DNA from: a virus | Lineage: Duplodnaviria; Heunggongvirae; Uroviricota; Caudoviricetes | Virus record (IMG/VR): IMGVR_UViG_2854558644_000001 | Reading direction: 5' to 3' (one strand) | Length of the DNA: 30,784 nt | In this document: positions 2,339-28,764 of the stretch, piece by piece | How positions within the stretch are numbered: the stretch's first letter is position 1 | Layout: each line of letters starts with the position of its first letter | Translations under genes and position numbers: made by a program | Notes under the pieces: model-generated | What the model saw: the letters and a program-made list of their open reading frames with translations, nothing else | Told to the model about the DNA's origin: nothing | The model's database searches: none

Positions 2339-2369
2339 TAACAGAGAATATACAAGTGAGGTGATATGT

Positions 2370-2672
2370 ATAGAAGTAATTGAAACAAATCTAATCATTG
2401 ATGAAAATAATTTCATTCGAGATCATCAATCAAGAGTAGTCGAAGCAGACAGTTGGGACGAATATTGTAAAGCACATAAGAATTATGATGGTAAAGCAGT
2501 TTTGTTCAAATCAAAAGTTATGAAAGGTAACAGCATCCAATCTAATTGTAAAATTTCAAATCTGAAATATGATGAAATGCATTTGTCTTGTAATATCACA
2601 AAATTAAAAGATAATGGAGAAGAAATCTTTACAGATAAAAGATTAGCATATCGAATAGTTGATCCGACTTAA
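2370..2672 (+). CDS. Phage hypothetical protein (proposed ATA start 2370; track GTG 2361)
   Basis: The GTG lies inside the SD AGGTGA (2359-2364); in-frame ATA is 5 nt downstream. Confidence 0.7.
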   Translation: MEVIETNLIIDENNFIRDHQSRVVEADSWDEYCKAHKNYDGKAVLFKSKVMKGNSIQSNCKISNLKYDEMHLSCNITKLKDNGEEIFTDKRLAYRIVDPT

Positions 2673-2720
2673 TCAAGTCAAAAAAAATTCCAAAACAAAT
2701 AACTGAATAGTGAATATATG

Positions 2721-2830
2721 AATGGGTGGAAGAACAGCATACCCTTGGGCTTTTGCGCTCAAAAATCACTGTTGAAGATAGATTTTCACATAAATTTATT
2801 TTCTGTGTTCCAGTCGTAAGACTGTTCAAA
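2721..2830 (+). other. Candidate structured leader RNA upstream of the replication operon
   Basis: Successive hairpins gggt/accc, ttgggc/gctcaa, tgaaga/ttttca, cagtc-GTAA-gactg; gaacag 2732 can pair with ctgttc 2822. Confidence 0.4.
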
Positions 2831-2878
2831 TATAGTTATCAAAAAATTTTATTACATATTATAAGGAGGATTCATTTA

Positions 2879-4090
2879 ATGAATTTTGAAATGACAGGAA
2901 AGTTAAGTATTCCAAAGGAGACAGAGAAGTTTCATCCTGATACCGAAAAAACTTATGAGTCTGGTTGGGTGCGTAAACAGTTAATGTTTAATGTAACTTG
3001 CGGAGACAACAGACACATGATGACTGCTACATCGGGTGCTTTTGCGGATGGTCATGGTGATGTGCACACATTTTCTAAGAATGGTGTAGATGAAAATGGT
3101 AATAAGGTTAAGGGTGAATTATTAAAGATTCCATTTAAGGAGAGACTTACATCATCAAAGTTAGCAGAAGTTGCAGAGTTCAAGAAGTTTATCTTTGATC
3201 TTGAAAAGCCAGGTCGTAGATATAAACTTGAAAAGGCTGCGGAAAAGGTTAAGGAAGGAACAAACCTTACTGATGAAGAGTTAAAAGAGATTGGTATTGA
3301 GAATGAAGCAGATGTAAATGCGGAGCTTGAAAAGAGTAACAAAAGAAGACATGAATTTATTTCAGAATGGGATTTCATCGACTTTATTAAGAAGGTTATT
3401 GATAGTGGAAAGTATTCTGATGAGAAGTTCTTCATTCGTGGAAATGGCGAGTATCGGTATTCAGACAAAAATCAGAGAGTTTATGAATCATATGTTCCTA
3501 ATCGTATTTATCTCGCAGCAGACGATGCAGAAGAGAGTTCAACAGCTACAATTAATGTCTTATTTAACTCAGAGAGTTTAGATGATATGAGTGTAGAAGA
3601 GAAGGGTAAGTATTATGTAAATGGATACATGATGGAATATGACAATAATCGTAAGGGTAATATTGCTGTGCCAGTTACAATTACAATTCCAGTTCCTTCA
3701 GACGATGCTGATGAAAAGGCTAAGAAGAGAGCAGAGTCAATCAAGCATAAATTTATTGTTGATGATGATACGTTCAAGGAATATGGTGCGGTCGTTAATA
3801 TGCTTAATGGTGCTCAGAAGACAGAGATTACAGAGGACATGCTTACTGATGAACAGAAGGATGACTTAGAGTGTGGTCTTATTACTATGGATGATATTCG
3901 TGCAGAACTTGGTGGAAGTGTATATGGTGAAAGAATTAGAGAGTATCAGTTCTTAAAGCCAGCAAAGGGATTCACTAAGGGCAGACAGGACACGGTATAT
4001 ACAGAAGATGATATGGTAATTAAGCCACTTGAAGAGGAGCTTCCAGAAGGAACAGAAGACCTCTTTGAAGATGACGATGATGAACTTTAA
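2879..4090 (+). CDS. Putative phage ssDNA-binding protein (SPbeta YorF position)
   Basis: SD aaggagga then ATG 2879; acidic tail DLFEDDDDEL; first gene of the replication module. Confidence 0.6.
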   Translation: MNFEMTGKLSIPKETEKFHPDTEKTYESGWVRKQLMFNVTCGDNRHMMTATSGAFADGHGDVHTFSKNGVDENGNKVKGELLKIPFKERLTSSKLAEVAEFKKFIFDLEKPGRRYKLEKAAEKVKEGTNLTDEELKEIGIENEADVNAELEKSNKRRHEFISEWDFIDFIKKVIDSGKYSDEKFFIRGNGEYRYSDKNQRVYESYVPNRIYLAADDAEESSTATINVLFNSESLDDMSVEEKGKYYVNGYMMEYDNNRKGNIAVPVTITIPVPSDDADEKAKKRAESIKHKFIVDDDTFKEYGAVVNMLNGAQKTEITEDMLTDEQKDDLECGLITMDDIRAELGGSVYGERIREYQFLKPAKGFTKGRQDTVYTEDDMVIKPLEEELPEGTEDLFEDDDDEL

Positions 4091-4163
4091 AAGAGATGAG
4101 GGCAAATGCCCTTCTCTCGATAATAACAAATAAAAATATGATTATTTAAAAGGAGATATACAT

Positions 4164-5309
4164 ATGGCATTTCAGAAACCAACAATTAATGTAATTAAAC
4201 CAGATATTAAGAACTTATCAATCTATCTTAGGAGTACAAAGAAATTCGGCAAGTCAACATTATTTAGAGATGTAATTCTTGAAAAGTATGGAGATCCATC
4301 AAGAGGTTTGCTTGTAGGTTGTGGAAATGAGAAAGGTTATAAGATGCTTGATAATCTGAATGCTACTCAGGTTAAGACATATAAGGATTTACAGGAATTA
4401 GCTGATTGGTTAATTAACGAGAAGGGTAAGGAACACAATATTGAAATGGTAGCTTTTGATACTGGTGATGAGCTTGCACTTATTGCAGATACAGAAACTA
4501 TTCGTCAAAGCAATGTTGAAAATCCTAACAAGAAGTGTAAGTCAATTAAGGCTGCATTTGGTGGATATACAGCAGGAGAGAAGTATTCTGCAAATGATAT
4601 TATTAAGCCTTATATGACAAAGCTTGAAGATGCAGGTTTTGGTGTATGGGTAATTGCACATACTAAATTTAAGACAATTAAGGAAAAGGGTGGTCTTGAA
4701 GAGGATGGATATATGCAGTTATCTTCAAATATGGGAGCAGATTATGAAGCTGCTTTTGGTGACATTTTTGATGTAACTCTTACAGGTGTTATTGATCGTG
4801 ACCTTGAAGAAAAGAAGGTTGGGGATAAAGTAAAGAAGTATGCAACAGATACAGTTCGTAAACTTTATTTTAGAGGAACAACACTTATTGATGCAGGTGG
4901 ACGTTTTGCAGATGGTGCAGTGCCAGAATATATGGTATTTGATAAGCCTAATATGGCGGCTGATTTTATTAGAGTAGTCGAGGAAGGTATGGAAAAGTCA
5001 AAGTCTACTATCGGTAAGAAGTCTACCCCTAAGAAGACAACGCCAGTTAAGGAAGAAAAGGTTACTGAACCTGATCCTATTGAGGAAGACGATATTGATG
5101 ATATCGACACACCAGTAGAGGATACAATTGAAGAGACAACAGAAACTTCTGCATATCCAGATGATTTAGATGCTGTTATTCGTAAGATGTATAAGGAGTG
5201 CAAAGATGCAGAACTCAAGGCTTCTGTTAAGAATGTAATTGCTGAGTATGGTAAGCTTAATGATGTCGATGAGGACGGATTAAAGAGAATCTATGACATG
5301 ATGAACTAA
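4164..5309 (+). CDS. AAA_24/Sak4-like P-loop ATPase (YorG-like recombination protein)
   Basis: Walker A variant STKKFGKST, Walker B AFDT, acidic low-complexity linker near the C-terminus. Confidence 0.75.
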   Translation: MAFQKPTINVIKPDIKNLSIYLRSTKKFGKSTLFRDVILEKYGDPSRGLLVGCGNEKGYKMLDNLNATQVKTYKDLQELADWLINEKGKEHNIEMVAFDTGDELALIADTETIRQSNVENPNKKCKSIKAAFGGYTAGEKYSANDIIKPYMTKLEDAGFGVWVIAHTKFKTIKEKGGLEEDGYMQLSSNMGADYEAAFGDIFDVTLTGVIDRDLEEKKVGDKVKKYATDTVRKLYFRGTTLIDAGGRFADGAVPEYMVFDKPNMAADFIRVVEEGMEKSKSTIGKKSTPKKTTPVKEEKVTEPDPIEEDDIDDIDTPVEDTIEETTETSAYPDDLDAVIRKMYKECKDAELKASVKNVIAEYGKLNDVDEDGLKRIYDMMN

Positions 5310-5321
5310 AAGGAGTAACAC

Positions 5322-5801
5322 ATGCTGGTTAAATGCAGACTGTGTGGTACTAAAGTAGATAGAAATGAAGCATTCAAAGTAGTAGTAGGTGGTAAGAACA
5401 CCTACTATTGCAATGAAGCTGAATATCAGAAAGTATTGCACGAAAAGGAAATAAAAGACAATACATACGAATGTATTAATCAGATATTTGGATATAAAGT
5501 TTTGAATTCTGCTTTGTTCAAAGAGATAAATCTTTTATTGGATGTGTATTCTTATGAATATATTTTGGCATATCTAACAGAGAATAAAGAATATATAACA
5601 AAGATTCTTGAAAAGGATTTTGTAAGTGAATATGCAAAAATTCGGTATTTCGCTGCGATACTTAAAAATAATTTGGCTGACTTTAGAATGAAAGAGCCTG
5701 AAAAACCGAGAAAAGTTGAAGTTGATATGCCAATTATGAATTATAAGAGAAGAAATAAACGTAGAAGTTTATCTGAAATTGAAGAAAGCGTAGGTGATTA
5801 A
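5322..5801 (+). CDS. Zn-finger protein (YorH position), possible helicase loader/initiator
   Basis: CRLCG...YYC; located between the ATPase and the helicase. Confidence 0.65.
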   Translation: MLVKCRLCGTKVDRNEAFKVVVGGKNTYYCNEAEYQKVLHEKEIKDNTYECINQIFGYKVLNSALFKEINLLLDVYSYEYILAYLTENKEYITKILEKDFVSEYAKIRYFAAILKNNLADFRMKEPEKPRKVEVDMPIMNYKRRNKRRSLSEIEESVGD

Positions 5802-7353
5802 CATAAGTGAATTTATTACAGGTGTAAAAGAGAAATATCCTGCTCAATTGTTAAAAGGTAGAATTGAGTACGAAGGTAATGTTATCAGTTGTTTTTTCAA
5901 GGATATGCTTCTGCTTGATGATACAACATTTGAACAAAAAGATTTTATTACAGCAGATGGTCTTTTTTATTTTTCATTGTTGAAAAATCTGAGAAAGAAA
6001 GGTTTTTATTCCTTAGATGAAATAACTATCTTATCAAATATGAACGAAGAAGTTATTGAGAAATTTGAGGATAAGGGTGGTTGGGATACAATTCAACACC
6101 AAATTGATATTATCAATACTCAGAATTTTGATACATATATAGATATTCTTTATAGAGAGAATATTATGTTGAACATGTATAAGGATGGTTTCAATCTTTT
6201 GCAGGAAATAACTGTAGGAGATAAAAAGGTAATACCTTTGAAATTGTTCAGAAAGATGACTGCCGAAGAAGTAACAGATTGGTATGAAGCTCGTATATCT
6301 AGTTATGGAACTGGTTATAGCAGTAAAATACTTGAAGAGGAAGAAATTGATTTTGATGATGAATTCATAGAGTCTTGTAAAGATGGCGAAGAAAATGGTG
6401 TACCATTTGATATTGCTGGCTATGATAAAAATGGTGAAGAGATGAACTGTTTTCCGTTTTTATCACGACAGATTATGGGATTGCTTGAAGGAACACTTAC
6501 AATGATGGGTGGATTCTCAAGTGCAGGTAAATCTACTTGGTGGATTACAATTCTTATGGCACTTCTGCATTATGATCGAAAAATTCTTATTATCTCCAAT
6601 GAGGAGAATATCAAAAAATTCAAGATTAAATTCATGGTTTGGTTGCTTGGAAAACGTAATAGATATTTTAAACTCACAAAAAAGAAAATGGCATCTGGCG
6701 ATATTAATGCTGAAAGCAGAGAACAGTTAACAGATGTACAGAAATTTTGGAGAGAGAATTATAAGGGCAGAGTTAAATTTATTTCCATTAACGATGCTGA
6801 CATGCGAGTTGTAAAGAAAAAAATTCGTGAGAATGTATTGAGATATGGGTATGACACTGTATTATATGACACATTTAAGATACAAGAAGGAGATTTTTCA
6901 TCTGCAAGACAAGACTTATCTCTCGTAAGAGATAGTCGTGAATTAGACAAATTAGCAAAGAAATACAATTTGATTATGCTTGCTTCTGTACAGTTAGCAG
7001 AGTATATGAAAGGAAAGTTATTCTTGGATGCAAGCTGTTTGAGTAATGCTAAACAGATTAAGGAAATATTGGAAAATCTATTCCTAATGAGAACTGTATA
7101 CGCAGAGGAATTGGATGAAAAGAGTAAGTTTTATTGTCGTCCATTCCGATTGAAAAAGGTCAATGATAAATGGATAGAAGAAGAGTATAAACCCGATCCT
7201 AATGCCGTATGGCGTATGGTTTTTGTTGAAAAAACAAGAAATGGCAACAATTCCAGTGATACAGGTGTTGCTTATCTTTTGAAGTTTTCAGGCGACCATT
7301 GCATTTTCAGAGAGACTTGTCAGTGTAGACCTCGACATGGAGAAATAAAATAA
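5794..7353 (+). CDS. DnaB-like replicative helicase (YorI-like); start possibly ATA 5803
   Basis: Walker A GGFSSAGKS, Walker B YDTF, ASVQL, VEKTRNG. Confidence 0.88.
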   Translation: MINISEFITGVKEKYPAQLLKGRIEYEGNVISCFFKDMLLLDDTTFEQKDFITADGLFYFSLLKNLRKKGFYSLDEITILSNMNEEVIEKFEDKGGWDTIQHQIDIINTQNFDTYIDILYRENIMLNMYKDGFNLLQEITVGDKKVIPLKLFRKMTAEEVTDWYEARISSYGTGYSSKILEEEEIDFDDEFIESCKDGEENGVPFDIAGYDKNGEEMNCFPFLSRQIMGLLEGTLTMMGGFSSAGKSTWWITILMALLHYDRKILIISNEENIKKFKIKFMVWLLGKRNRYFKLTKKKMASGDINAESREQLTDVQKFWRENYKGRVKFISINDADMRVVKKKIRENVLRYGYDTVLYDTFKIQEGDFSSARQDLSLVRDSRELDKLAKKYNLIMLASVQLAEYMKGKLFLDASCLSNAKQIKEILENLFLMRTVYAEELDEKSKFYCRPFRLKKVNDKWIEEEYKPDPNAVWRMVFVEKTRNGNNSSDTGVAYLLKFSGDHCIFRETCQCRPRHGEIK

Positions 7354-7371
7354 TAACTTTTGGAGTGATAT

Positions 7372-8400
7372 ATGTTAGCAGATATTAAGAAAGAATTGAT
7401 AAATCACCCAGATAAGCTTAAAGATGTGTTAGAACATTTTGGCTATTGTAACATAGTAATTCGTCCTAAATATATATCTTTTGGACGAGATGAAAAGTCA
7501 TCAAAGAAAAGTATAGTAATCAATCTTGAAAATAACGAGTATTTGTACACCATTGATTATGCGAGAAATATAAGAAAAGATATTTTTTCATATATCATTG
7601 AGCAAAGAAAGGTCGAATTTATAGATGTCCTTAATGAAGTAAGACATGCATTAGGAATTACAGATTATTATGATTTCTTTGATAGTAAAGGAATTTTTGG
7701 AGGATTTTATGAAAAGATTAGAAAGCGAAGAACTAATAAAGTCAATATATACGATGATTCCATCTTAGATTGCTATGTTAATTGTGGGAATACAAGGTTT
7801 CTTGCTGATAATATATCACTTCTTTCACAAAAATTTTTTAACATAAAGTACGATGTAGAATCACAAGGAATTGTTATTCCCATAAGAAATCAATTTGGAC
7901 AGTTAATGGGTGTTAAGGAACGATTCAATTATGATGTTCCTGATGGTGAAATGAAATATTTTTATGCTGTTCCTTGCAGCATGAGCCAAACATTATTTGG
8001 ATATTCTCAGAACTATGAATTTTTAGTAGATAATACTATCTATATCTTTGAAGCTGAGAAGAGTTGTATGCAGTGCTATTCATACGGAATAAGAAATTGT
8101 ATATCTCTTGGAAGCGGATCTATTTCTATTCAACAAGTCAAAATGCTTCTTGAATTAAATCCCAAACGAATAATCTTCCTACATGATGTAGGATATGGAC
8201 TTGAAAATATTATGAGAAATATTGATATGGTCAAAAATTATTCCAGGTTCACAGAAGTTGAACTTGGATATTGGAGTTATTTTGGTCGAGGATATAAAAA
8301 TAAAGTTTCGCCATCTGATTTAGGAAAAGAGTGTTTAGAAAATATTTTACAAAATGAGATAACAATGATTGGAGATGAGGATGACGAAGACGAATTATAA
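7372..8400 (+). CDS. TOPRIM DNA primase (YorJ-like)
   Basis: IVIPIRN...GVKER, YIFEAEKS, ISLG, FLHD; directly after the helicase. Confidence 0.8.
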   Translation: MLADIKKELINHPDKLKDVLEHFGYCNIVIRPKYISFGRDEKSSKKSIVINLENNEYLYTIDYARNIRKDIFSYIIEQRKVEFIDVLNEVRHALGITDYYDFFDSKGIFGGFYEKIRKRRTNKVNIYDDSILDCYVNCGNTRFLADNISLLSQKFFNIKYDVESQGIVIPIRNQFGQLMGVKERFNYDVPDGEMKYFYAVPCSMSQTLFGYSQNYEFLVDNTIYIFEAEKSCMQCYSYGIRNCISLGSGSISIQQVKMLLELNPKRIIFLHDVGYGLENIMRNIDMVKNYSRFTEVELGYWSYFGRGYKNKVSPSDLGKECLENILQNEITMIGDEDDEDEL

Positions 8401-9985
8401 AATATTAAACGATTGTCGTGGAATGTATGAAGATGAAGTATTTGATACGATTCTTAATCAAAGAGGGGTTGAAAATGTTGAACATTTCTTAAATCCAACA
8501 GAAGAAGATTTATTACCATTAGATTCATTATTTCGTATAGATGAAGCATATCAAAGAGTAGACTCTGCAATTACAAACAATGAATGTATAGGAATTTTGT
8601 TTGATACTGATTTAGATGGTATTACGTCTGGAACAGAAATGACAAGATATCTAAGGCATTTTACTATAAACATTAAGACCTATATAGATGAAGGTAAGAT
8701 GCATGGTTTGATAGGACAAGATTTAGCTCAGTTCAATGGGATTGATTTGCTGATTATTGTAGATAGCTTAGATAAAGATGTCTCTCAGTATAGAAAACTA
8801 AAAGAGATAGGGGTAGATATAATTATCCTTGATCATCATGCAATCAAAGAGAATGAACCATATGATGAAGTTTCAATTTTAGTATCTTCACAAAGAAATT
8901 ATGAGAATCCACAGTTATCAGGAGCAGGTGTTGTATGGAAGTTTTGCAAATATCTTGATGAGCAATATATTACAGATTATGCAGACGAACTTATTGATTT
9001 AGCAGCTTGTGGAATCGTTGGAGATATGATGGATATGACTGTTATGGAGAATAGATATATTGTCTCTAAGGGATTGGAGAAAATATATAATCCAGCAGTT
9101 AAGAAGATAGTTGGTGGATTTGAATTTAACAGTACAGCTATTGCTTTTAGTGTCGCTCCTATTGTAAATGCAAGCAACCGTATGGGTAAGAATGATGTGG
9201 CTATGAAAGCTTTTTTGGAAGATGAAAATAAGCAGGTATTGGCTTATATAAAAGAGTTAAAAAAATGTAAAGAAGATCAGAATGTTGAGGTTGATAGATT
9301 ATTGCCAAATGTGTTGGAACAATGCAGCTCACAATCAGATAAAAAAATGATTATTACATATATAGATACTCCATATGGTATCAGTGGTTTGTTGGGTAAC
9401 AAATTACTAGAAAAGTATCAGAAGCCAATCCTTGTATTAAAAGATACAGGAGAAAATTATTCTGGTTCTATGAGGGCTGTAGGAGTGGATGACTTTAGAG
9501 AAATATGTAATAAGAGTGGTTTAGCAAAATGTGATGGTCATGAACTTGCGGCAGGAATCACAATCGAAAAATCTAATATAGATAGATTTACATTATATAT
9601 AGAAGAAACTCTTCCAGAATTAAATACTGATGTTTCAGTGGATATTGATATTCGATTAGATGTTTCTGATATTACTCGTAAGTTAGTAGAGAATATAAAG
9701 AAGATAGATAGAATATCTGGAACAAATTTCAAACCAGTAAAGGTGTTTATCAATGGAATAAATGAATATGAAATTGGACAAATGAGTGATTATAAACACT
9801 TGGTTGTAAAACCTAATGATTATTTGCAGATTATCAAGTGGAATTTTGATGGTTCATTTGATGAAATGGAAGATCATAGCATGATGAATGATGAATTAGA
9901 AGTTATATGTACTCTTGATAGTGGCTTTTTTGGCAGGAAATTTGTCCTAAAAGCGGTATGTGACGAGATTAAGGAGGTGGCTTGA
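8381..9985 (+). CDS. recJ: RecJ-like ssDNA exonuclease (DHH/DHHA1)
   Basis: DTDLDG, IIVDS, ILDHH, SGAGV, GSMR, GHELAAG. Confidence 0.92.
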   Translation: MTKTNYKILNDCRGMYEDEVFDTILNQRGVENVEHFLNPTEEDLLPLDSLFRIDEAYQRVDSAITNNECIGILFDTDLDGITSGTEMTRYLRHFTINIKTYIDEGKMHGLIGQDLAQFNGIDLLIIVDSLDKDVSQYRKLKEIGVDIIILDHHAIKENEPYDEVSILVSSQRNYENPQLSGAGVVWKFCKYLDEQYITDYADELIDLAACGIVGDMMDMTVMENRYIVSKGLEKIYNPAVKKIVGGFEFNSTAIAFSVAPIVNASNRMGKNDVAMKAFLEDENKQVLAYIKELKKCKEDQNVEVDRLLPNVLEQCSSQSDKKMIITYIDTPYGISGLLGNKLLEKYQKPILVLKDTGENYSGSMRAVGVDDFREICNKSGLAKCDGHELAAGITIEKSNIDRFTLYIEETLPELNTDVSVDIDIRLDVSDITRKLVENIKKIDRISGTNFKPVKVFINGINEYEIGQMSDYKHLVVKPNDYLQIIKWNFDGSFDEMEDHSMMNDELEVICTLDSGFFGRKFVLKAVCDEIKEVA

Positions 9986-9986
9986 T

Positions 9987-12900
9987 ATTTCAGACATTGA
10001 ATTAATAAAAAAAATAATTCCTACTCTTACATTTAAGTTTCCATATTCACCAAAAGAATATGAAAAGAATTTATATCTTGAAAATTATCATTGTCATAAA
10101 GATTTTAGCAATACATCTACACCAGATTGTGCTGAATCTATTAATGTCTATGCAGAAAGAATTCATGAATTTGGCACAAAATGTTTGTATTCTGGTGAAC
10201 ATGGTTCGCAAGGTAATCAGTTTCAAGTCTATAAGGTCGCAGAGAGTGAACATCTGAAATATATTCATTCTTCTGAAGTTTATTGGGTAAAAGATAGAAA
10301 AGAAAAAGATAGAGCAAATTGTCATATGATTATTGCAGCTAAAAATGCTGAAGGTCGTGGAGATATTAATTTTGCTTTATCAATGGCTAATATTGATGGA
10401 TATTATTATAAGCCACGTATTGATTTAGAATTATTATTTAATATTCCAAAAGACAATGTGATTATAACGTCAGCTTGCGTGGCAGGTTGGAATTATGAAG
10501 ATGCAGAAGATATATGGCTTAAAATACATAAATATTTTGGAGATAATTTCTTTTTAGAAGTTCAGTATCATAACACTGATAAACAGAAAGAACTTAATAA
10601 AAAGATTTTAAGAATTGCAAAAGAACATAATATCCAGATTATATGTGGTCTTGATAGCCATTATGTTAAAGAAGAAAATGCAGTTAAACGTGACCAGATT
10701 CTGAAATATAAAAACATTAATTATCCAGATGAGGAAGGTTGGTATCTTGATTATCCTGACACTCAAACCGTAATTAAAAGATTTGAAGAACAAGGTGTTT
10801 TAAACAGAGAAGAAATATATAGAGCAATTATGAATACAAATGTTTTTGTGACAGAATGTGAAGAAATTGTTCTTGATAGAAAATTTAAGATTCCGAGTGT
10901 TTACAAAGGAAAAACCTATAAAGAAAAATGTAAAATTTACAAAGATGTTCTTAATAAAGCTTATGCAAAAGAAAAAGAAAAATCAAAAGAAAAAGCCGAT
11001 GGTATTCGATATGAAGCAAAGCAAGTTATGGAAGCTGGTGTTGTGGATTATTTCTTAACAAGTAAGGCTATTGTAGATGACGCAATAAAAAATGAAGGTG
11101 GTATTTTAACAACTACTTCAAGAGGTAGTGCTGCATCATTTATAACAAATAAACTTTTAGGACTTACAACTGTTGATAGATTCAATGCTGATATTCCTAT
11201 TTATCCTGAACGATTCTTGACTAAGGAACGTGTATTAGCTGGTCAGATGCCAGATATTGATTTGAATGTTGCTACACAAGAACCATTTGTTAAAGCAGCA
11301 AGAAAATTATTAGGGGAACATGGCTGTTACCCATTGATGGCAATAGAAAAACTTAAAGAAAAGGCAGCTTGGCAGTTATATGCAGGTGCAAACGAAGTTA
11401 AACCAGAGGATGCGAATCAGATTTCAAAGTATCTTGATGAATATAATAAGGCATTAAAATATGCGGATGAAGATGAAAAGGATGATATTCATGTAGAAGA
11501 TTATATCCCAAAAGAGTATACAGAGTTATTCAAACAGAGTAGTGAATACCAAGGGATCACAATCAATTTGAAAGTACATGCTTGTGGTCATTTTATCTTT
11601 GATGGTGATATTCGTAGAGAAGTAGGATTAATAAGTGCTGTTTCTGGATCAACTGGCAAAAGAACAGTATGTGCAGCTATTGAAGGTGGTTATCTTGATG
11701 AATTCGGATATGTAAAAGAGGATTTTCTTATTGTAGATAGTGTTTATCTTACATATAAATTCTTTCATAGCATTGGTATGGAAGTTCCGACATTTGATGA
11801 ACTAAGACATATGATTGATGGTGATAAAAAAACATGGGATATTTATGCAAATGGTATTACATGTTGTATTAATCAGTGTGAGAAAGAGGCGACTACTAAT
11901 CGAGTGAAGAAGTATAAACCGCAAAATTTAGCGGAGTTAAGTAGCTTCATTGCAGCAATTCGACCAGGTTTTGCGTCATTACTTAGTACATTCTTGAATC
12001 GTGAACCATATACTACAGGCGAAAAAAAGATTGATGATTTATTATCTGATACTGCGCATTTTATGATTTATCAGGAATCTATTATGAAAGTATTATCATT
12101 CTTGGAATTGAAAATGGCAGAAACATATGGAGTTATTAAAAATATTTCAAAAAAGAAATATAAATTACATCCTGAAATGTTAAAAGAATTACAGGAACGA
12201 TTAATAGAAGGTTGGAAAGCAGAAATCGGTAAGACAGATAATTTTAATAATGTTTGGAATGTAATAGAGTCTTCTGGATCATACGCATTTAATTCTCCAC
12301 ATGCTTATTCAATGGGTGGAGATTCTGCCTATCAAGCATGGTTTAAAGCACATCATACTAAAACATTTTATGAAGTAGCAATCAATCATTATCAAGAAAA
12401 GAATAAAAAGGATAAGATAGATGCTCTTGTTAAAGAAGCAATTAAATTTTGGGGATATAAACTAGGCGATTATGAATTTGGTGCAGATAACAGAAAAGTG
12501 ACAATTAATGAAGAGAATAAATTAATATATCCAAATTTATCAAGTGTAAAAGGCTTTGGTGAAGGGGTTGTTGATACTCTTTATGAATTAGGACAGTCGA
12601 AATATAAAACATTTACTGATGTATTAACTGCACTATTTTCAAATTCAATTAATAAGACCATTGTAAATAAACTTATTAGAATCAATTATTTTAAGAAATA
12701 TGGTGATGTAAATACTTTACTTGAGATTACAAGACTATATGATTTGTTAAATGGTGCGAAGCAGATCTCCAAAGATAAAGCTGAAAAGAATAATATTCCA
12801 TTTGATATACTTGTAAAACATGGAAATGAGACAGCTAAACAATTCAATAAACTTGACTCAGAACAAATTATTAAGGAATTGATTTCTAATATTCCTTATA

Positions 12901-13289
12901 GAGAATTAACTTTAAAGGAAAGGCTTGATAATCAGAGAGAAGTTCTTGGTATTGTCAGTGACTCGGATTCAAAAGTAAGCAAACGTCTATATTATGTTTC
13001 TGAACTTGATATTAAAAAATCTATTGTAAATGTTCATCTTTTTGAAATCTATAGTGGTAAAACACGAGAAGTAAAAATGTGGACAAGTCAGTATAATCGA
13101 AATCCATTTGATCTAGGTGCAATTCTATATATTATTTCCCTTGAAAAGAAGAATAAAAAAGAGCCAACTGGTGAAATAAATCCAGTTACAGGTAAGAAAA
13201 TTTATAAAGAAGTACCTAATAAATTTGAATTTTGGTTAAGCAAATTTGTAATAAAAAATGATATTGAGGAGGACGAAGACGATTTTTAA
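9987..13289 (+). CDS. dnaE: DNA polymerase III alpha subunit, phage DnaE-type (proposed ATT start; track GTG 9960)
   Basis: PHP motifs YHCH, EH, EVY, DSHY; RGSAA, PERF, PDID, HACG, KEDFL, RPG, YQE, FNSPHAYS. Confidence 0.95.
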   Translation: MSDIELIKKIIPTLTFKFPYSPKEYEKNLYLENYHCHKDFSNTSTPDCAESINVYAERIHEFGTKCLYSGEHGSQGNQFQVYKVAESEHLKYIHSSEVYWVKDRKEKDRANCHMIIAAKNAEGRGDINFALSMANIDGYYYKPRIDLELLFNIPKDNVIITSACVAGWNYEDAEDIWLKIHKYFGDNFFLEVQYHNTDKQKELNKKILRIAKEHNIQIICGLDSHYVKEENAVKRDQILKYKNINYPDEEGWYLDYPDTQTVIKRFEEQGVLNREEIYRAIMNTNVFVTECEEIVLDRKFKIPSVYKGKTYKEKCKIYKDVLNKAYAKEKEKSKEKADGIRYEAKQVMEAGVVDYFLTSKAIVDDAIKNEGGILTTTSRGSAASFITNKLLGLTTVDRFNADIPIYPERFLTKERVLAGQMPDIDLNVATQEPFVKAARKLLGEHGCYPLMAIEKLKEKAAWQLYAGANEVKPEDANQISKYLDEYNKALKYADEDEKDDIHVEDYIPKEYTELFKQSSEYQGITINLKVHACGHFIFDGDIRREVGLISAVSGSTGKRTVCAAIEGGYLDEFGYVKEDFLIVDSVYLTYKFFHSIGMEVPTFDELRHMIDGDKKTWDIYANGITCCINQCEKEATTNRVKKYKPQNLAELSSFIAAIRPGFASLLSTFLNREPYTTGEKKIDDLLSDTAHFMIYQESIMKVLSFLELKMAETYGVIKNISKKKYKLHPEMLKELQERLIEGWKAEIGKTDNFNNVWNVIESSGSYAFNSPHAYSMGGDSAYQAWFKAHHTKTFYEVAINHYQEKNKKDKIDALVKEAIKFWGYKLGDYEFGADNRKVTINEENKLIYPNLSSVKGFGEGVVDTLYELGQSKYKTFTDVLTALFSNSINKTIVNKLIRINYFKKYGDVNTLLEITRLYDLLNGAKQISKDKAEKNNIPFDILVKHGNETAKQFNKLDSEQIIKELISNIPYRELTLKERLDNQREVLGIVSDSDSKVSKRLYYVSELDIKKSIVNVHLFEIYSGKTREVKMWTSQYNRNPFDLGAILYIISLEKKNKKEPTGEINPVTGKKIYKEVPNKFEFWLSKFVIKNDIEEDEDDF

Positions 13290-13812
13290 CAAATATAAGT
13301 ATACAGATAAGGAAATGGAAGAGTTAATATCTTCCATTACAATCCTTATTGACACAAGGGAGAAAGTCAATTCCCACATTACAGATTACTTTGATCGAAA
13401 AGGAATTTCATATAAAAAGAAAGCACTCGGTTATGGAGATTATTCGTTCATGATTCCTGCAAATGAGAAGTTATCCATACCTCGTGATTTGTATTTTAAT
13501 ACAACATGTGTCATTGAGAGAAAAGCTAGTCTTGAAGAAATAAGCAATAATTTGACAAAAGAGCGTGACAGATTTGAAAAAGAATTATGTCTTGCACCAA
13601 AAACTAAAGTGTTACTAATTGAAAATGCTTCTTATGAGGATATTGCAACAGGGAATTATGATACAAAGTATAATCGAAAATCTTTTATTGCATCAATCCA
13701 TAGCTTTTGGTTCAAATATAACATTCCAGTTATGTTTATGCCAAACAATCAATATTCAGGACTGTTTATCAGAGAGTATTTTGAATATTTCTTAAAGAAT
13801 TATCTTCGATAG
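13282..13812 (+). CDS. ERCC4/XPF-family nuclease, possible resolvase (proposed ATT start; track ATG 13258)
   Basis: IDTREK, GDYSF, IERKAS. Confidence 0.85.
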   Translation: MFNKYKYTDKEMEELISSITILIDTREKVNSHITDYFDRKGISYKKKALGYGDYSFMIPANEKLSIPRDLYFNTTCVIERKASLEEISNNLTKERDRFEKELCLAPKTKVLLIENASYEDIATGNYDTKYNRKSFIASIHSFWFKYNIPVMFMPNNQYSGLFIREYFEYFLKNYLR

Positions 13813-13841
13813 AGAGAATAATACAGTAGGAGGTAAAAGTC

Positions 13842-17169: not shown

Positions 17170-17185
17170 AAGAAAGGTGATTGAA

Positions 17186-17374
17186 ATGAAGAAAATATTA
17201 AAATCAATAATGCTTACATTGTTATGGTTTCTGTTAGCTACAATGGTTTGTATTGCTGTTAGAGGAATTGTTTACATACTCGGCTTATTAATTGGAGAAA
17301 CAATGGCAGTGTTATTGATAACTATATTGTTACTAATATTCATAGCAATATTTATTTATAAAGAATTTTTATAG
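17186..17374 (+). CDS. Small two-TM membrane protein
   Basis: AGGTGA-5 nt-ATG; two hydrophobic segments. Confidence 0.75.
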   Translation: MKKILKSIMLTLLWFLLATMVCIAVRGIVYILGLLIGETMAVLLITILLLIFIAIFIYKEFL

Positions 17375-20074: not shown

Positions 20075-20125
20075 TTCAGAGAATATTTTATTGAGATTAA
20101 TCAATCTCACACTAAAAGAAAGCAG

Positions 20126-20842
20126 GTGATAAAGATAAGTAAGGTAAGAAGATTAGTAGCAGGATCGCTATTAACTGCTTCAGCTTTAACTTGTATAGTC
20201 CCCTTATGGGGACAAAATAATATACAAACTGCTAAAGCAGCACAGGAAGGTCAGTACATATATTCAAGAGTATTTACTGACCTAAAAAAGAATTTTGAAA
20301 AAGAAAAGACTCAAAAAGAGTTAGAAGAAAAAGAAGCTATGGAACAAATTATCGCTAGGGAATATGAGAGTTTAGAGAGCGAAATTGAAGAATATTTGGA
20401 AAAGTATACAGATTATCCTGTTCCAGAAAATAAGCCTTTTAAATCCTATATGGACGCAGATACTATTAGGGATAAAAGCTCAAAGCAATATGCTATGAAA
20501 TCAACATTTCTTCTTGATTATAACACGGGAATATATATGATTGGTAATAGATATGCTTGCGCTTTAGGCTCATTTTATTCAACTGATATAGGAACTGAGT
20601 TCGATATTGTGCTTGAAAATGGAGAAGTTATTCCATGTATCTTAGCTGATGTTAAAGATGATGAACATACAGATTCTCTTAACCAGTATACAGTTGCAAA
20701 TGGTTCAATTGTTGAGTTTGTAGTACATACAAACACACTCATTCCTAATATCTCAAATCGTTGGGGTAATACAGGAGATGTATCTAAGATAGATGGATTT
20801 GAAGGTGAAATAGCTTATATAAGAATTTATGAAAGGGAGTAA
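20126..20842 (+). CDS. Exported protein, possible 3D/RlpA-like cell-wall hydrolase (start possibly ATA 20135)
   Basis: Signal-like N-terminus, coiled coil, C-terminal domain with RYACALGS, CILADVK, IVEFVV; the fold call is inference. Confidence 0.5.
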   Translation: MIKISKVRRLVAGSLLTASALTCIVPLWGQNNIQTAKAAQEGQYIYSRVFTDLKKNFEKEKTQKELEEKEAMEQIIAREYESLESEIEEYLEKYTDYPVPENKPFKSYMDADTIRDKSSKQYAMKSTFLLDYNTGIYMIGNRYACALGSFYSTDIGTEFDIVLENGEVIPCILADVKDDEHTDSLNQYTVANGSIVEFVVHTNTLIPNISNRWGNTGDVSKIDGFEGEIAYIRIYERE

Positions 20843-21644: not shown

Positions 21645-21789
21645 GATCTATTGCAGTAATAGGACTTGTCCTTATATGGAATGTGTAAGGTATTACAAGA
21701 ATATTCCATATAATGTGTTAATTCTAAGAGAAAATTATAAATTGGACAAGAATAATAAATGTCCAAACATATTATTAGATTGGGAGTGA
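21610..21789 (+). CDS. Small Cys-containing phage protein (59 aa), absent from the track
   Basis: SD aggag; MKSKKRITEKNKIYCSNRTCPYMECVRY...CPNILLDWE. Confidence 0.65.
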   Translation: MKSKKRITEKNKIYCSNRTCPYMECVRYYKNIPYNVLILRENYKLDKNNKCPNILLDWE

Positions 21790-21795
21790 TGATGT

Positions 21796-22356
21796 ATAAA
21801 ACTTTATTGTGATTTTGACGGAGTTATCGTAGATACAATCGCTGCAATATGTGATTTGTATAATGAAGATTTCAAATATTATAGTGATTATAAATATATT
21901 CTTCCAGAACAGGTTAAGACTTGGGATTTTGAAGAACTTGACTGTGCAAGTAGAGAATATATAAATACATATTTTAATCAGCAGCGATTCTTTGATAGGT
22001 TAAAGTTCATGCCACAAGCCTATGAAACTTTAAGAAAATTCGCCTTAAAAGGTGAAGTTATTATTGTCTCTTCTGGTTACAGCCCAAATCTTAGAGCAAA
22101 AGAAGAGTGGTGTAAAGAACATCTTCCGTTTTGTCAGTTTATAGGAGTTAATCTTAAAAAATATAAAGATAAATCTCATATAAATATGAATGGTGACTTA
22201 TTTATTGATGATTCTGCACATAATCTTAAGACTTCTAACGCAGAGACAAAGATTTGCTTTGGTGAAATTTATCCTTGGAATAAGGAATGGAATGGCAAGC
22301 ATTGTTGGGATTGGAATATGATTCATCAGATATATAAAGCAGAATTGGAGGATTAA
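21796..22356 (+). CDS. 5'(3')-deoxyribonucleotidase (HAD/NT5C); needs ATA start or a +1 frameshift
   Basis: In-frame IKLYCDFDGVIVDT upstream of the track TTG 21856; in-frame TGA at 21790; motifs IIVSS, KSH, FIDD. Confidence 0.85.
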   Translation: MKLYCDFDGVIVDTIAAICDLYNEDFKYYSDYKYILPEQVKTWDFEELDCASREYINTYFNQQRFFDRLKFMPQAYETLRKFALKGEVIIVSSGYSPNLRAKEEWCKEHLPFCQFIGVNLKKYKDKSHINMNGDLFIDDSAHNLKTSNAETKICFGEIYPWNKEWNGKHCWDWNMIHQIYKAELED

Positions 22357-22358
22357 AT

Positions 22359-22487: not shown

Positions 22488-22490
22488 ATA

Positions 22491-24686: not shown

Positions 24687-24687
24687 T

Positions 24688-25239: not shown

Positions 25240-25264
25240 TTTAAGGAGTAATTAAAGAATAATT

Positions 25265-25612
25265 ATGAATGATAAAGAAGCGTTAGAAAAATTAAAAGCA
25301 TATCTTAAATGCCAGAAAAGACAGGTTAAGGGTGTTCATGAAGATTGTAATAATAAGAAGTGTGACAACTGCGATTTATGTTATATGCAGGGAACTACAG
25401 GTGAACATATTGAAGCTATTGAATCAGCAATACAGTCACTCGAAAGCCATAAAAGGGTTATTGAAAGATTAAAAAAAGAGTTAAAGCTTGCTGAAGATGT
25501 AGAGGAAAGAACTGTTAAAGAAAATCCTTTGCAGTTTGATCGTGTTAAAGGATATGCGGTAGGTATTTATAATGCATTAGAATTTGTAAAAAATGGTGGT
25601 AAGGAAAAATAA
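25265..25612 (+). CDS. Phage hypothetical protein with Cys cluster
   Basis: CQ...CNNKKCDNCDLC. Confidence 0.75.
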   Translation: MNDKEALEKLKAYLKCQKRQVKGVHEDCNNKKCDNCDLCYMQGTTGEHIEAIESAIQSLESHKRVIERLKKELKLAEDVEERTVKENPLQFDRVKGYAVGIYNALEFVKNGGKEK

Positions 25613-25887: not shown

Positions 25888-25905
25888 TAAGAGAGGTGAA
25901 CAACT

Positions 25906-26538
25906 ATAGGATATTTATATGATAGGTTTAAAGGAAAATATAGAATCTTGTGTCCTGTAAATAAAGATACAAACGATTTTAATCGTAAGCTCAATGGCAC
26001 ATTAGAAGATATTGATTGTTATATATCTTGTCAATATGGCAACAAGGTATTCTATTATGGACATAATACTTTACAAACATATATTCCTTCTTTAATAAGA
26101 GGACATAATATTATTAAAATAATTCAGCAATATGATCCGTCTCTTATATTTGACATTGAAGAAACGGATTCTGAAATTCTATTTAAGTTCAAATATGTCA
26201 ATTCAGACAAGGTTATTCCTTTACTAAAACCAAGAACATCAGGCTCTCAAATAAGTCCTTTTTCATCCAAAAATCTCCCAAAATCTAATTTTAAAATCCC
26301 AGATGATAAATTGACACAGTACAAAGAAATCGTGTCTAAAATTCCTCCTGAGAAGCTTTTAACCCTAAGTAGAATGACACATTCTTATTTACAAACTTTG
26401 GTTACAAAGAAAAACAATTGGGAGAATATTAAAGCAGATATGAGACTCAAATGTGTCAAGGGTAAGGAATATATCTACATGATTGGCAAATGGGACGAAT
26501 ATCTCAAATATCTTAAGAATGAAATTAAGGAGATGTAA
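25906..26538 (+). CDS. Phage hypothetical protein (proposed ATA start; track TTG 25948)
   Basis: Frame open from 25900 (IGYLYDRFKGKYRILCP); SD AGGTGA 25894-25899. Confidence 0.7.
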   Translation: MGYLYDRFKGKYRILCPVNKDTNDFNRKLNGTLEDIDCYISCQYGNKVFYYGHNTLQTYIPSLIRGHNIIKIIQQYDPSLIFDIEETDSEILFKFKYVNSDKVIPLLKPRTSGSQISPFSSKNLPKSNFKIPDDKLTQYKEIVSKIPPEKLLTLSRMTHSYLQTLVTKKNNWENIKADMRLKCVKGKEYIYMIGKWDEYLKYLKNEIKEM

Positions 26539-26867: not shown

Positions 26868-27303
26868 TATTAAGAAAACAGATAAGAATGCAAAGATCCC
26901 TACATATGGTAGTGAATTTGCAGCAGGTGCAGACTTATATGCAGTAATACATAATGAAGAAAATAGAGTGGAGATTCTTCCTGGCGAAACAGCTTTTATT
27001 GACACAGGAATTGTGATGGAAATACCTAATGGATATGTCGGTCTTGTTTATGCTAGAAGTGGTTTATCTTGCAAGCAGGGATTAGCTCCTGCCAATAAGG
27101 TCGGGGTGATTGATTCAGACTATCGAGGTAATATTATGGTTGCACTATATAATCAGAGTAATGAAGTAAGAACGGTATCTGAAGGTGATAGAATCGCACA
27201 GATTATTATTCAGCCAATAGAACAGTTTGGATTTAAGGTAACGGAAAATCTTAGTAATACAGTTAGAGGAAATGGTGGCTTTGGTAGTTCGGGAAAGGCA
27301 TAA
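26854..27303 (+). CDS. dut: Trimeric dUTPase
   Basis: AGADL, ARSG, GVIDSDYRG, RIAQ, RGNGGFGSSG. Confidence 0.96.
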   Translation: MKIINIKKTDKNAKIPTYGSEFAAGADLYAVIHNEENRVEILPGETAFIDTGIVMEIPNGYVGLVYARSGLSCKQGLAPANKVGVIDSDYRGNIMVALYNQSNEVRTVSEGDRIAQIIIQPIEQFGFKVTENLSNTVRGNGGFGSSGKA

Positions 27304-27305
27304 AT

Positions 27306-27491
27306 ATGGAAAATAAGGTTTTAAGCCAAAAAGATTTATATGACATTCTTCCTTTTGGAAAAACTAAGATAAAACAACTAATAAAATCAGGAGAACTTCC
27401 CCTAATGAAAATTGGTAATGATTATATAACAACATTTTCCATATTGGAAGAATGGATCAAAGAACATATCAATGAAGAAATATATTATTAA
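27306..27491 (+). CDS. Excisionase-like winged HTH protein
   Basis: LSQKDLYDILPFGKTKIKQLIKSGELPLMKIG; adjacent to the integrase. Confidence 0.8.
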   Translation: MENKVLSQKDLYDILPFGKTKIKQLIKSGELPLMKIGNDYITTFSILEEWIKEHINEEIYY

Positions 27492-27494
27492 TCA

Positions 27495-27545
27495 TTGAAA
27501 AAACAGGGCAGACATATTATGATTAAGTCATAATTGTACTGCCCT
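27495..27545 (+). promoter_or_regulatory. Integrase promoter overlapped by an imperfect palindrome
   Basis: TTGAAA(27495)-17-TATGAT(27518); agggcag-aca-t-attatga / tcataat-tgt-a-ctgccct (27505-27545). Confidence 0.6.
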
Positions 27546-27567
27546 TATATTGATGTAAAAGAAAGGT

Positions 27568-28764
27568 GTGATAATTATAAATAGTATCAATATATCGGCA
27601 ACTATTAATAATATGAATATAATGCAACGAAAAGATGATAGGTTTGAGGCTAAAATTACAATCAATGGTATTAGAAAAAGCTTTTATGGTAATACAAAAG
27701 TAGAAGTAAAAAATAAGGTTAAATCCTATCTTCAAAAAATTAATAATGGGTTTAAAGAAACAAAAAAAATCAAGCTGAATGATTATGTAGAATATTGGCT
27801 AAGTAATTATAAATTTGGAACAATTGAAGGCTCTAGTTACACTAGGTTATACAGTGTTTATCAACATCAAATTAAACCTTATATCGGCAATAAATATATC
27901 TGTGATATTACATCTCAAGATATAGATGTCTTTATTAAGGAATTTGCCAATCCTCCATTAAAATCAGGGAAAAAACCATTAGCTTTATCTGGATTAAAAA
28001 AAATCATACAATTATTAAACCCATGTTTTGAAACAGCAATTAAAGAAAAAATTATATTTAATAATCCATGTAGTGATATTAAGCTACCAACAGAAAGTTA
28101 TCTTATTGTTAAAACTAAAGAACAATTTTCATTAACAGATAAGCAGTTAGAGCAATTTAAAAAAGAAGCTGTATCTAAATACAAAACGATAGATGAATAT
28201 AAAGGAAGAGACTTCTTAGTTTTAATTATTATGTTGAATCTAGGGTTGCGAACAGGCGAGGTACTTGCATTAACATGGGATGATTTTAATTTTAAGAATA
28301 ATATAGTTAAAATTAATAAAACAATACAGACAAAAGTTGCATTAGATTCACAATGTAAAAAACAGAGTTTAGCTTTAAAAAATTCCACAAAAACTGTCGC
28401 AGGTGAAAGATATCTAAAACTTAACGAAAATACTTTACATTATATTCAAGAACTAAAACAATACGACATAAGAAACAACATAAATAGTGATTATTTTTGT
28501 TGTTGTAAAAATAATACAAGACAATGTGCAAGAAATCTTCAACGTAGTCTTGATAGATTAACACGAAATATTAAATCGGACGAACATATAACATTACACA
28601 CTTTAAGACACACATTTGGTTCAACATTATTAAGAAATGGTGTAGGAATTGAAGTTGTAAGTAAGCTATTAGGACATGCTAATATAACCATCACATATAA
28701 TAAGTATATTCATGTAATTAAAGAGCAAGAAGCAATAGCAATGAATATGGTAAAAGTTTGCTAA
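27568..28764 (+). CDS. int: Tyrosine integrase, catalytic residues intact
   Basis: QRKDDRFEAKI arm-binding N-terminus, GLRTGE, HTLRHTF, LLGH, TYNKY; start codon ambiguous. Confidence 0.95.
   Translation: MIIINSINISATINNMNIMQRKDDRFEAKITINGIRKSFYGNTKVEVKNKVKSYLQKINNGFKETKKIKLNDYVEYWLSNYKFGTIEGSSYTRLYSVYQHQIKPYIGNKYICDITSQDIDVFIKEFANPPLKSGKKPLALSGLKKIIQLLNPCFETAIKEKIIFNNPCSDIKLPTESYLIVKTKEQFSLTDKQLEQFKKEAVSKYKTIDEYKGRDFLVLIIMLNLGLRTGEVLALTWDDFNFKNNIVKINKTIQTKVALDSQCKKQSLALKNSTKTVAGERYLKLNENTLHYIQELKQYDIRNNINSDYFCCCKNNTRQCARNLQRSLDRLTRNIKSDEHITLHTLRHTFGSTLLRNGVGIEVVSKLLGHANITITYNKYIHVIKEQEAIAMNMVKVC

Follow-up and report, generated by a model that had tools for sequence, protein, structure and literature searches.

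The DNA analyzed here, a window of 30,784 nucleotides, is a segment of a large prophage from a gut Lachnospiraceae bacterium. Its G+C content is 31%, that of the host 35–36%, and its nearest complete relative is the phage genome G001. The phage is temperate and 155 kb in size, within a family of Lachnospiraceae phages that ranges from 150 to 200 kb. Eight genes in the window carry a Shine-Dalgarno (SD) sequence followed at short distance by an in-frame ATA or ATT codon, and a further gene with ATG in this place provides an internal control:

2358..2672, + strand: small gene (100 aa) with no Pfam match; SD GAGGTGAT at 2358–2365, probable start ATA 2370, spacing 8
5792..7353, + strand: DnaB-like helicase; SD AGGTGAT at 5792–5798, ATA 5803, aligned spacing 8
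9971..13289, + strand: DnaE (Pol III alpha); SD AAGGAGGTG at 9971–9979, ATT 9987
13266..13812, + strand: ERCC4-type nuclease; SD GAGGAGG at 13266–13272, ATT 13282
17175..17374, + strand: internal control gene; AGGTGA at 17175–17180, 5 nucleotides, ATG 17186
20117..20842, + strand: signal-peptide-like protein; SD AGAAAGCAGGTGAT at 20117–20130, probable start ATA 20135, spacing 8
21783..22356, + strand: NT5C-type 5'-deoxynucleotidase; SD GGAGTGA at 21783–21789, ATA 21796
25893..26538, + strand: gene without annotated function (210 aa); SD GAGGTGA at 25893–25899, ATA 25906
27560..28764, + strand: tyrosine integrase; SD AGAAAGGTG at 27560–27568, probable start ATT 27574 or ATA 27577

Throughout, ATG, GTG and TTG are treated as canonical starts and ATA and ATT, joined in relatives by ATC and ACG, as near-cognate; a near-cognate codon is called forced when a stop lies upstream in its frame and no canonical alternative exists. 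The coordinates and motifs of all eight sites and of the ATG control were re-checked and agree with those of the original prediction, which held that translation of these genes begins at ATA or ATT. The 16S rRNA of E. segne, a host of this phage family, ends in GGATCACCTCCTT, and the SDs of the near-cognate starts are complementary to this 3' end, matching up to 13 of the 15 bases of AGAAAGGAGGTGATC, typically in the 3'-shifted form AGGTGAT. The start codon typically follows 5–6 nucleotides after the SD (aligned spacing 8–9); most near-cognate starts lie at an aligned spacing of 8–9, and ATG starts peak at 6–9. At the same gene positions, the SD averages 6.1 nucleotides before near-cognate codons and 4.7 before ATG (Mann-Whitney p = 7e-4), the compared contexts sharing phylogeny and hence not being independent. 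An in-frame upstream GTG or ATG is present at six of the eight sites. Four of these codons, the GTGs at 2361, 5794, 20126 and 27568, fall within the SD or at its 3' edge, at an aligned spacing of at most 1 and with no SD of their own. At 21796 and 25906 no upstream start is possible, because the TGA of the SD is itself in frame.

We regard as secure the predicted ATA or ATT starts of five genes, namely the helicase (5803), DnaE (9987), the ERCC4 nuclease (13282), NT5C (21796) and the gene at 25906. In all five families, the very codon aligned with the start is ATG, GTG or TTG in some relatives, and ATG itself was found there in each family. Forced near-cognate contexts number 9, 6, 8, 7 and 13, respectively (43 unique contexts, which likewise share phylogeny and are not independent), and the gene trees require a minimum of 4 + 3 + 5 + 1 + 3 = 16 switches between weak and strong codons. 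The helicase, recognized by a Pfam DnaB_C match, has its ATA one nucleotide past the TAA (5799–5801) of the upstream gene; among the unique contexts of its relatives, 15 have ATA at the aligned codon, 4 have ATG, 3 ATC and 2 ATT, with at least four switches on the tree and an in-frame stop forcing the nine near-cognate contexts. DnaE (Pfam PHP, DNA_pol3_alpha and finger domains) begins at an ATT one nucleotide past the TGA (9983–9985) of a RecJ-like gene and is followed by 40 codons devoid of any canonical codon. Its relatives carry ATT (11), ATA (5), ATG (13) or GTG (3) at this position, with at least three switches; one of them (L103) combines ATG at the aligned codon with a TAA two codons upstream, and near-cognate starts are forced in L151, L141, L110, L136 and L104. 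The ERCC4 nuclease (Pfam ERCC4), whose ATT overlaps the end of dnaE (TAA 13287–13289), shows the widest interchange, since ATT, ATA, ATC, ATG, GTG and TTG all occur at the same aligned codon, with at least five switches and eight forced ATA contexts. Canonical codons do lie in frame upstream of the latter two starts in the window, GTG 9960 for DnaE and ATG 13258 for the nuclease, the ATG being replaced by ACG in L091 and L090. The SD-encoded extensions that such upstream starts would add, MTRLRRWLD and MILRRTKT, are not conserved among homologs, because in-frame stops fall inside them in relatives of DnaE (L103, L104, L151) and of the nuclease (L141, L110, L138, L157).

The remaining two secure starts are forced in the window itself. 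For NT5C, with an in-frame TGA at 21790, the open frame begins at 21793, and TTG 21856, its first canonical codon, comes only after the catalytic DFDGV motif; the Pfam NT5C match begins at residue 3, corresponding to profile position 4. Relatives retain ATA down to 47% identity, and two (L068, L122) have ATG. In the gene at 25906, an in-frame TGA at 25897 is followed by no canonical codon until TTG 25948, which is codon 15 and comes after the conserved peptide YLYDKFKGKYR. The aligned codon in relatives is ATA, ACG, ATG or TTG, followed by S-Y-L, with at least three weak/strong changes and seven codon changes on the tree, and some homologs contain more than 80 codons with no canonical codon at all. 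ACG appears to serve as the start codon of this gene in some relatives.

At 2370, 20135 and the integrase (27574 or 27577), near-cognate starts are probable but not forced, and here the original prediction holds less firmly than for the five genes above. The integrase (Pfam Phage_integrase and SAM_3) has a GTG at 27568 that overlaps the SD; one relative (L065) has GGAGGTGA followed by ATA and no canonical alternative, and in another (L053) an SD-spaced ATG aligns with 27577. With only five unique relatives, the site is graded as probable rather than secure. The SD at 20135, AGAAAGCAGGTGAT, matches 13 of 15 bases of the full anti-SD complement, and at equal spacing relatives with 50–54% identity carry ATT; the start is nevertheless not forced, because GTG 20126 is in frame in every relative. 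The site at 2370 is ambiguous: GTG 2361 corresponds to ATG in two relatives (L155, L116), and two others start one codon before the ATA equivalent (ATG in L122, GTG in L124). At neither 2370 nor 20135 does any relative exclude the GTG. Conversely, the control gene, with ATG at 17186, has ATA at that codon in one relative (L090), behind GGTGGTGAT. An ATA at 25259, picked by the blind scan, was not counted, since relatives place AAGGA close to the ATG two codons downstream (25265), making that ATG the likelier start. AAG or ACG at spacing 5–6, chosen automatically beside the ATA or ATT of the ERCC4 nuclease and of 20135, was ignored as an artefact of tie-breaking.

GGTGA-N5-ATA occurs 4 times in the window against 1.25 expected, a count reached or exceeded in 7 of 100 shuffles, and GTGA-N6-ATA occurs 7 times against 7.4; raw counts are within chance and therefore were not used as evidence. 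The signal comes instead from the placement of the motif at gene starts and from comparison with relatives. In a blind scan, 8 of 37 window ORFs had a near-cognate codon with an SD and no canonical alternative, versus 5 of 373 in a 400 kb stretch of the E. segne chromosome (Fisher p = 2e-6), where the only convincing case was infC, starting at ATT. A blind SD-anchored scan across the phage family (143 sequences, 2.3 Mb) found ATA after an otherwise unused SD in 61 of 134 gene-start contexts and in 4 of 926 intragenic ones (p = 4e-56); ACG was found 8 times at gene starts and twice internally (p = 2e-6), ATT 27 and 81 times (p = 1.5e-4), and ATA begins about 27 of 58 peptide clusters. In G001, ATT alone is not enriched (2/27, versus 22/264 or 8% of internal contexts), so that the case for the ATT sites is made by the homologs. 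Weak starts in G001 cluster in a module at 128–159 kb (5 of 38 genes versus 4 of 165 elsewhere, p = 0.013). A megablast search of GenBank phages with the replication module as query returned no matches, and an integrase-anchored scan returned only copies 98–99% identical, which added nothing.

Could the genes nonetheless start at canonical codons? The ATA and ATT codons would then be plain isoleucine codons that happen to come after an SD-like run of purines, with translation beginning at GTG 2361, 5794, 9960, 20126 or 27568, ATG 13258, or TTG 21856 or 25948. The upstream codons at six sites, the ATG found in two relatives at 2361, the GTG shared by all relatives at 20126 and the chance frequency of ATT after an SD all speak for this reading. 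Yet the GTGs embedded in the SD lack an SD of their own, and stops in relatives of the helicase, DnaE, the ERCC4 nuclease and the integrase remove the upstream codon while the near-cognate codon is kept. Starting at TTG 21856 would cost NT5C its catalytic motif, and some homologs of the 25906 gene have the long stretches lacking canonical codons. We judge canonical initiation to be very unlikely. A frameshift or sequencing error, suggested by out-of-frame ATGs at 2365 and 21792, was rejected, as the ATG is not conserved and the ATA is: in G001 and other relatives ATGATGT becomes ACAACAT or ATGACAT, with ATA at the same spacing. The near-cognate sites are found again in tens of assemblies obtained independently. 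It is hardly credible that AUG is restored on the RNA (AUA edited to AUI, ACG to AUG) or that the codons are read by a phage initiator tRNA or an IF3-like factor. Deamination could make ATA and ACG resemble AUG, but it cannot do so for the ATT and ATC found at the same positions. tRNAs are common in large phages, and seven are present in G001 (Ser twice, Glu, Tyr, Lys twice, Gln); since none is an initiator or Ile tRNA and the tRNA search of the window found none, the explanation by phage tRNAs was dropped. A phage initiation factor is not supported by a search of G001 for the IF3_C domain, which gave no match, and in S. aureus ordinary ribosomes initiate at such codons when an extended SD precedes them (PMC13009471).

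Weak starts may also be real and of no adaptive value, having arisen by AT-biased mutation of ATG to ATA and persisting as nearly neutral changes, since expression stays sufficient behind a strong SD. The low G+C content of the phage, the frequent codon switching on trees and the fact that one transition turns ATG into either of the two commonest alternatives, ATA or ACG, are consistent with this account. We consider it rather unlikely, however: the host, at 35–36% G+C, has almost no weak starts, relatives of the helicase and NT5C keep ATA down to 47–55% protein identity, weak codons are exchanged for other weak ones (ATA, ACG, ATT, ATC) inside one gene family, the sites in G001 are clustered, and SDs before weak codons are longer.

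We propose that translation of these phage genes very probably starts at near-cognate codons placed in the ribosomal P site by an extended SD. The positions of the starts, the geometry of the SDs and the interchange with ATG, GTG and TTG are apparent from the compared genomes. According to this model, base-pairing of the extended SD to the 3' tail of host 16S rRNA would position ATA or ATT in the P site, where initiator fMet-tRNA would most likely read it with one mismatch. By analogy with S. aureus reporters, such reading may yield a fraction of the protein obtained per mRNA from ATG, and initiation would be expected to be sensitive to IF3. The selective benefit may lie, for example, in low levels of replication, nucleotide-pool and integration enzymes in a temperate phage. 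That down-tuning is the purpose is suggested by the S. aureus reporter data (PMC13009471), and the presumed expression level and IF3 sensitivity of the phage genes are carried over from other species. It is conceivable, though on balance doubtful, that the whole IF3-sensitive set (AUA, AUU, AUC and ACG) forms a selected control layer in this phage family, tying the dosage of these enzymes to the translational state of the host. If so, a bacterial system would have ACG as a start codon conserved in nature; the reports on ACG starts that we found concern eukaryotes, their viruses or organelles, with no bacterial case among them. In 1996, Sussman reportedly observed that use of AUA, AUU, AUC and ACG rises when IF3 is impaired.

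What is the relevance of these starts for genome annotation? As originally predicted, gene callers limited to ATG, GTG and TTG misplace the N-termini: a plain ORF list gives truncated starts at 21856 and 25948, so that NT5C loses its catalytic motif and the 25906 gene its conserved N-terminus, and extended ones at 5794, 9960 and 13258, where the helicase, DnaE and ERCC4 nuclease acquire false SD-encoded residues. In relatives with no canonical codon for 80 codons, genes would be missed outright. The mis-annotation touches a widespread group of human-gut phages. Because weak starts are dense and retained in the family, many natural swaps among ATA, ATT, ATC, ACG and ATG occur at one position, with which the strength of start codons and their dependence on IF3 could be measured in Clostridia.

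A search of the literature brought up no relevant work on phages with densely placed near-cognate starts; the closest known systems are bacterial. In S. aureus, ribosome profiling with retapamulin and luciferase reporters identified infC (AUA), ccpN (AUA), cvfC1 (AUU) and citZ (AUA) as starting behind extended SDs at 10–30% of AUG, the AUA start of ccpN being common to S. aureus and B. subtilis (Nat Commun 2026, PMC13009471). The phage resembles this system in its low-GC Firmicutes host phylum, its AUA and AUU codons, the extended SD at fixed short spacing and the conservation of the weak codon among relatives, and a similar attenuation, to roughly 10–30% of AUG, may be expected for its genes by analogy. 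In contrast to four genes of about 2,800 in S. aureus, the prophage segment has five secure and three probable cases in about 37 genes, and dozens of gene families are involved across the phage group, among them replication, nucleotide-metabolism and integration genes; its relatives also use ACG and ATC. While weak starts are thus rare on bacterial chromosomes (these four genes, and one convincing case in 400 kb of host DNA), a phage can use them for about one-fifth of a module's genes and retain them even across deep divergence.

In E. coli, AUA, AUC and AUU support 1–2% of AUG levels, and an ACG start yields N-terminal Met (10.1101/063800); lower output or IF3 sensitivity of near-cognate starts is documented for S. 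aureus and E. coli (PMC13009471, PMC2268962, 10.1101/063800). As far as secondary accounts convey, E. coli infC and pcnB start at AUU and IF3 discriminates against near-cognate codons (Sacerdot 1996, Sussman 1996, Binns & Masters 2002, via PMC5499595, PMC13009471). As in infC and pcnB, the weak codon would limit output of the phage genes. The ATT start of infC in the host of this phage family is the one local hint at a possible link to IF3. Unlike the autoregulated infC of E. coli, the phage genes encode a helicase, DnaE, an ERCC4 nuclease, NT5C, an integrase and others, and because none of them is IF3 and G001 lacks an IF3_C domain, an infC-type autoregulatory loop does not apply. A weak start behind a strong SD is an already known route to low protein output, of which this phage is a dense new example.

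Comparison with more than 140 related loci, collected from 150–200 kb gut phages, argues for near-cognate translation starts (ATA or ATT) behind strong Shine–Dalgarno (SD) sequences in five genes of the window. The original prediction had proposed such starts; its motifs and coordinates are all correct on re-check, and ATG, sought at the aligned positions in relatives, is present for each of the five.

Codons aligned with the five start sites (unique contexts among relatives)
5803, ATA, helicase: ATA 15, ATG 4, ATC 3, ATT 2
9987, ATT, DnaE: ATT 11, ATA 5, ATG 13, GTG 3
13282, ATT, ERCC4 nuclease: ATA, ATT, ATC, ATG, GTG and TTG all found
21796, ATA, NT5C nucleotidase: ATA 10, ATT 3, ATG 2
25906, ATA, gene 25906–26538: ATA 7, ACG 8, ATG 3, TTG 2, GTG 1

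On the trees of the five families, changes between weak (ATA, ATT, ATC, ACG) and canonical (ATG, GTG, TTG) codons number at least 4, 3, 5, 1 and 3. Initiation further upstream would add N-terminal extensions such as MTRLRRWLD and MILRRTKT; conservation of these would have spoken for it, and in relatives the extensions are interrupted by stops. For the helicase, nine near-cognate contexts combine an upstream in-frame stop with the absence of any canonical codon. The near-cognate start of DnaE is forced, that is, left without a canonical codon in frame, in L151, L141, L110, L136 and L104, and another relative, L103, carries ATG precisely where the window has ATT, and has TAA two codons 5′ of it. 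ERCC4 has eight forced ATA contexts, and its upstream ATG in the window (13258) is ACG in two relatives, L091 and L090. NT5C is forced in the window itself: its DFDGV motif lies 5′ of TTG 21856, and the Pfam match runs from residue 3, at profile position 4. A frameshift or sequencing error at 21796 is ruled out by G001, the nearest complete relative, which lacks the out-of-frame ATGs adjacent to the site and keeps ATA at equal spacing. In L090 (L090:14213), the gene that served the original prediction as an ATG control (17186) carries ATA instead at that codon, behind GGTGGTGAT.

For gene 25906, N-terminal peptides across relatives align as (M/ATA/ACG)-S-Y-L-I-D-K-F-K-G, with ACG standing behind an SD in L074, L079, L042, L073 and other homologs. 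In several homologs with ACG or ATA, L074, L079 and L042 among them, the stretch between the upstream stop and a point more than 80 codons downstream is free of canonical codons, and the frame of L073 begins exactly at ACG. Among the papers listed in a literature search, none described ACG as a start codon occurring naturally in bacteria or phages.

The window (G+C 29–34%) carries nearly all its genes on the + strand. It encodes an AAA_24 ATPase, a DnaB-like helicase, a DHH/RecJ-like protein, DnaE, the ERCC4 nuclease and an NAD-dependent ligase; further genes encode a nucleotide kinase, the NT5C nucleotidase, NrdD/NrdG, a dUTPase and a tyrosine integrase. G001 (159,485 bp, the nearest IMG/VR record found) ends at 28944 of the window, a 72-nt inverted match lies at 28857–28928, and one gene is of host type:

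29591–30784, MASE6 plus HD-GYP (HD_5) signalling protein

The end of G001, together with this gene, identifies the window as a prophage's right end and its host flank, with the junction probably within 28800–30784. Relatives of its DnaE are carried on prophages of two Lachnospiraceae, Eubacterium segne BX4 (at 98% identity) and Konateibacter massiliensis (at 80%). The whole replication module (2877–14684) has no DNA similarity to G001 and its flanks are 93–97% identical, which points to exchange of the module between close phages. The matches to dnaE in L140, L157 and L163 are about 1.1 kb longer, as are those to nrdD in L056–L059, which indicates inserts; that in the L140 dnaE (L140:9799–10614) holds a GIY-YIG/NUMOD3 endonuclease ORF with an ATT start behind AAAGGAGG. 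The nrdD of the window starts with TTG at 22491, with a GAGGAGG SD upstream (22474–22493) and a Pfam ATP-cone match from residue 1.

What does the SD arrangement itself contribute? Both patterns noted originally, GTG or TGA inside the SD, follow from the spacer: 5 nt after AGGTGA necessarily place the SD-internal GTG in frame, and 6 nt place its TGA in frame. In the window, the raw numbers of GGTGA-N5-ATA and GTGA-N6-ATA show no excess over chance. Taken by itself, therefore, the pattern is no proof; its location at gene starts is. At homologous gene positions, the SD is longer before near-cognate codons, with a mean length of 6.1 nt versus 4.7 nt before ATG (p = 7e-4, from contexts that are not phylogenetically independent), with tighter spacing before the near-cognate starts. 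One host of the phage family is E. segne; its 16S rRNA terminates with GGATCACCTCCTT, so that AGGTGAT would pair with AUCACCU there and set the codon 5–6 nt downstream in the P site.

Location was assessed in a blind scan that placed all exact matches of at least 5–6 nt to AAAGGAGGTGAT in one common register and scored the in-frame codon 7–9 nt past the GGAGG position, only where no ATG, GTG or TTG stood at spacing 3–12; ATG starts of the phage peak at 6–9. In G001, ATA occupied 5/27 gene-start contexts versus 3/264 intragenic ones, and ATT was not enriched (2/27 versus 22/264). Across the family (143 sequences, 2.3 Mb; 134 gene-start and 926 intragenic unique contexts), enrichment at gene starts was found for ATA (61/134 versus 4/926, p = 4e-56), ACG (8/134 versus 2/926, p = 2e-6) and ATT (27/134 versus 81/926, p = 1.5e-4), and for no other codon. 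The contexts form 58 peptide clusters, about 27 of them with an ATA start. The window gave matches in 8 of 37 ORFs versus 5 of 373 in a 400-kb portion of the E. segne chromosome (p = 2e-6), where the sole convincing match was infC (L170), which serves also as positive control. In both E. segne and K. massiliensis (L169), infC has GGAGGTG, 7 nt and ATT followed by S-E-L-M-I-N; judged by sequence, the IF3 gene of the hosts thus begins at ATT. Matches in G001 cluster in a module at 128–159 kb (5/38 genes versus 4/165, p = 0.013), and further candidates lie outside the window-homologous region.

Further ATA/ATT start candidates in G001
51940, − strand, metallophosphoesterase
128134, + strand, 10-nt SD AGGAGGTGAT
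53448, − strand
28017, − strand

ATA 25259 (25259–25267) lies 9 nt, aligned, past AAGGAG and two codons 5′ of ATG 25265; the ATG is the likelier start, as relatives place AAGGA nearer to it.

At the integrase, gene 20135 and gene 2370, a near-cognate start is in each case fairly probable. The SD-embedded GTG at all three has a spacing of at most 1 and no SD of its own. For the integrase (ATT 27574 or ATA 27577), L065 has GGAGGTGA then ATA and no alternative start, and an SD-spaced ATG in L053 aligns with ATA 27577; the comparison covers five distinct relatives, a second scan having given near-identical copies only. At gene 20135, a 13/15 match to the full anti-SD complement precedes ATA, distant relatives have ATT at equal spacing, and GTG 20126 is in frame in all. 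For gene 2370, ATG stands in place of GTG 2361 in two relatives, and two others begin one codon 5′ of the ATA equivalent.

The mechanism itself is already known. In Staphylococcus aureus, extended SDs precede infC (AUA), ccpN (AUA), cvfC1 (AUU) and citZ (AUA), whose weak starts reach about 10% of the output of AUG and as much as 30% in rich medium (PMC13009471). In E. coli, AUA, AUC and AUU yield 1–2% of AUG, and ACG gives Met-initiated protein (10.1101/063800). Excess IF3 suppresses non-canonical starts (PMC2268962). Most likely, a weak codon behind an extended SD would act as a start in the phage as in S. aureus, and by analogy we infer lowered output, sensitivity to IF3 and an adaptive value. 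Searches of G001 gave neither an IF3_C domain nor an initiator or Ile tRNA. ATA 5803 and ATT 9987 lie 1 nt 3′ of an upstream stop and ATT 13282 overlaps the dnaE stop, so these codons may also act in restart, although equally tight packing is common among ATG genes here.

What is new is the density of weak starts in one prophage segment, the gene classes concerned (replicative helicase, DnaE, nuclease, nucleotidase and integrase), the many natural exchanges among ATA, ATT, ATC, ACG and ATG at one position, and the use of ACG among relatives. A recent preprint describes bacterial ATA starts as "a small number of examples" (10.64898/2026.10.01.756105). The phage shares with S. aureus the layout of SD plus weak codon, experimentally demonstrated there, and differs in density: five secure and three probable starts among about 37 genes, compared with four among about 2,800 in S. 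aureus.
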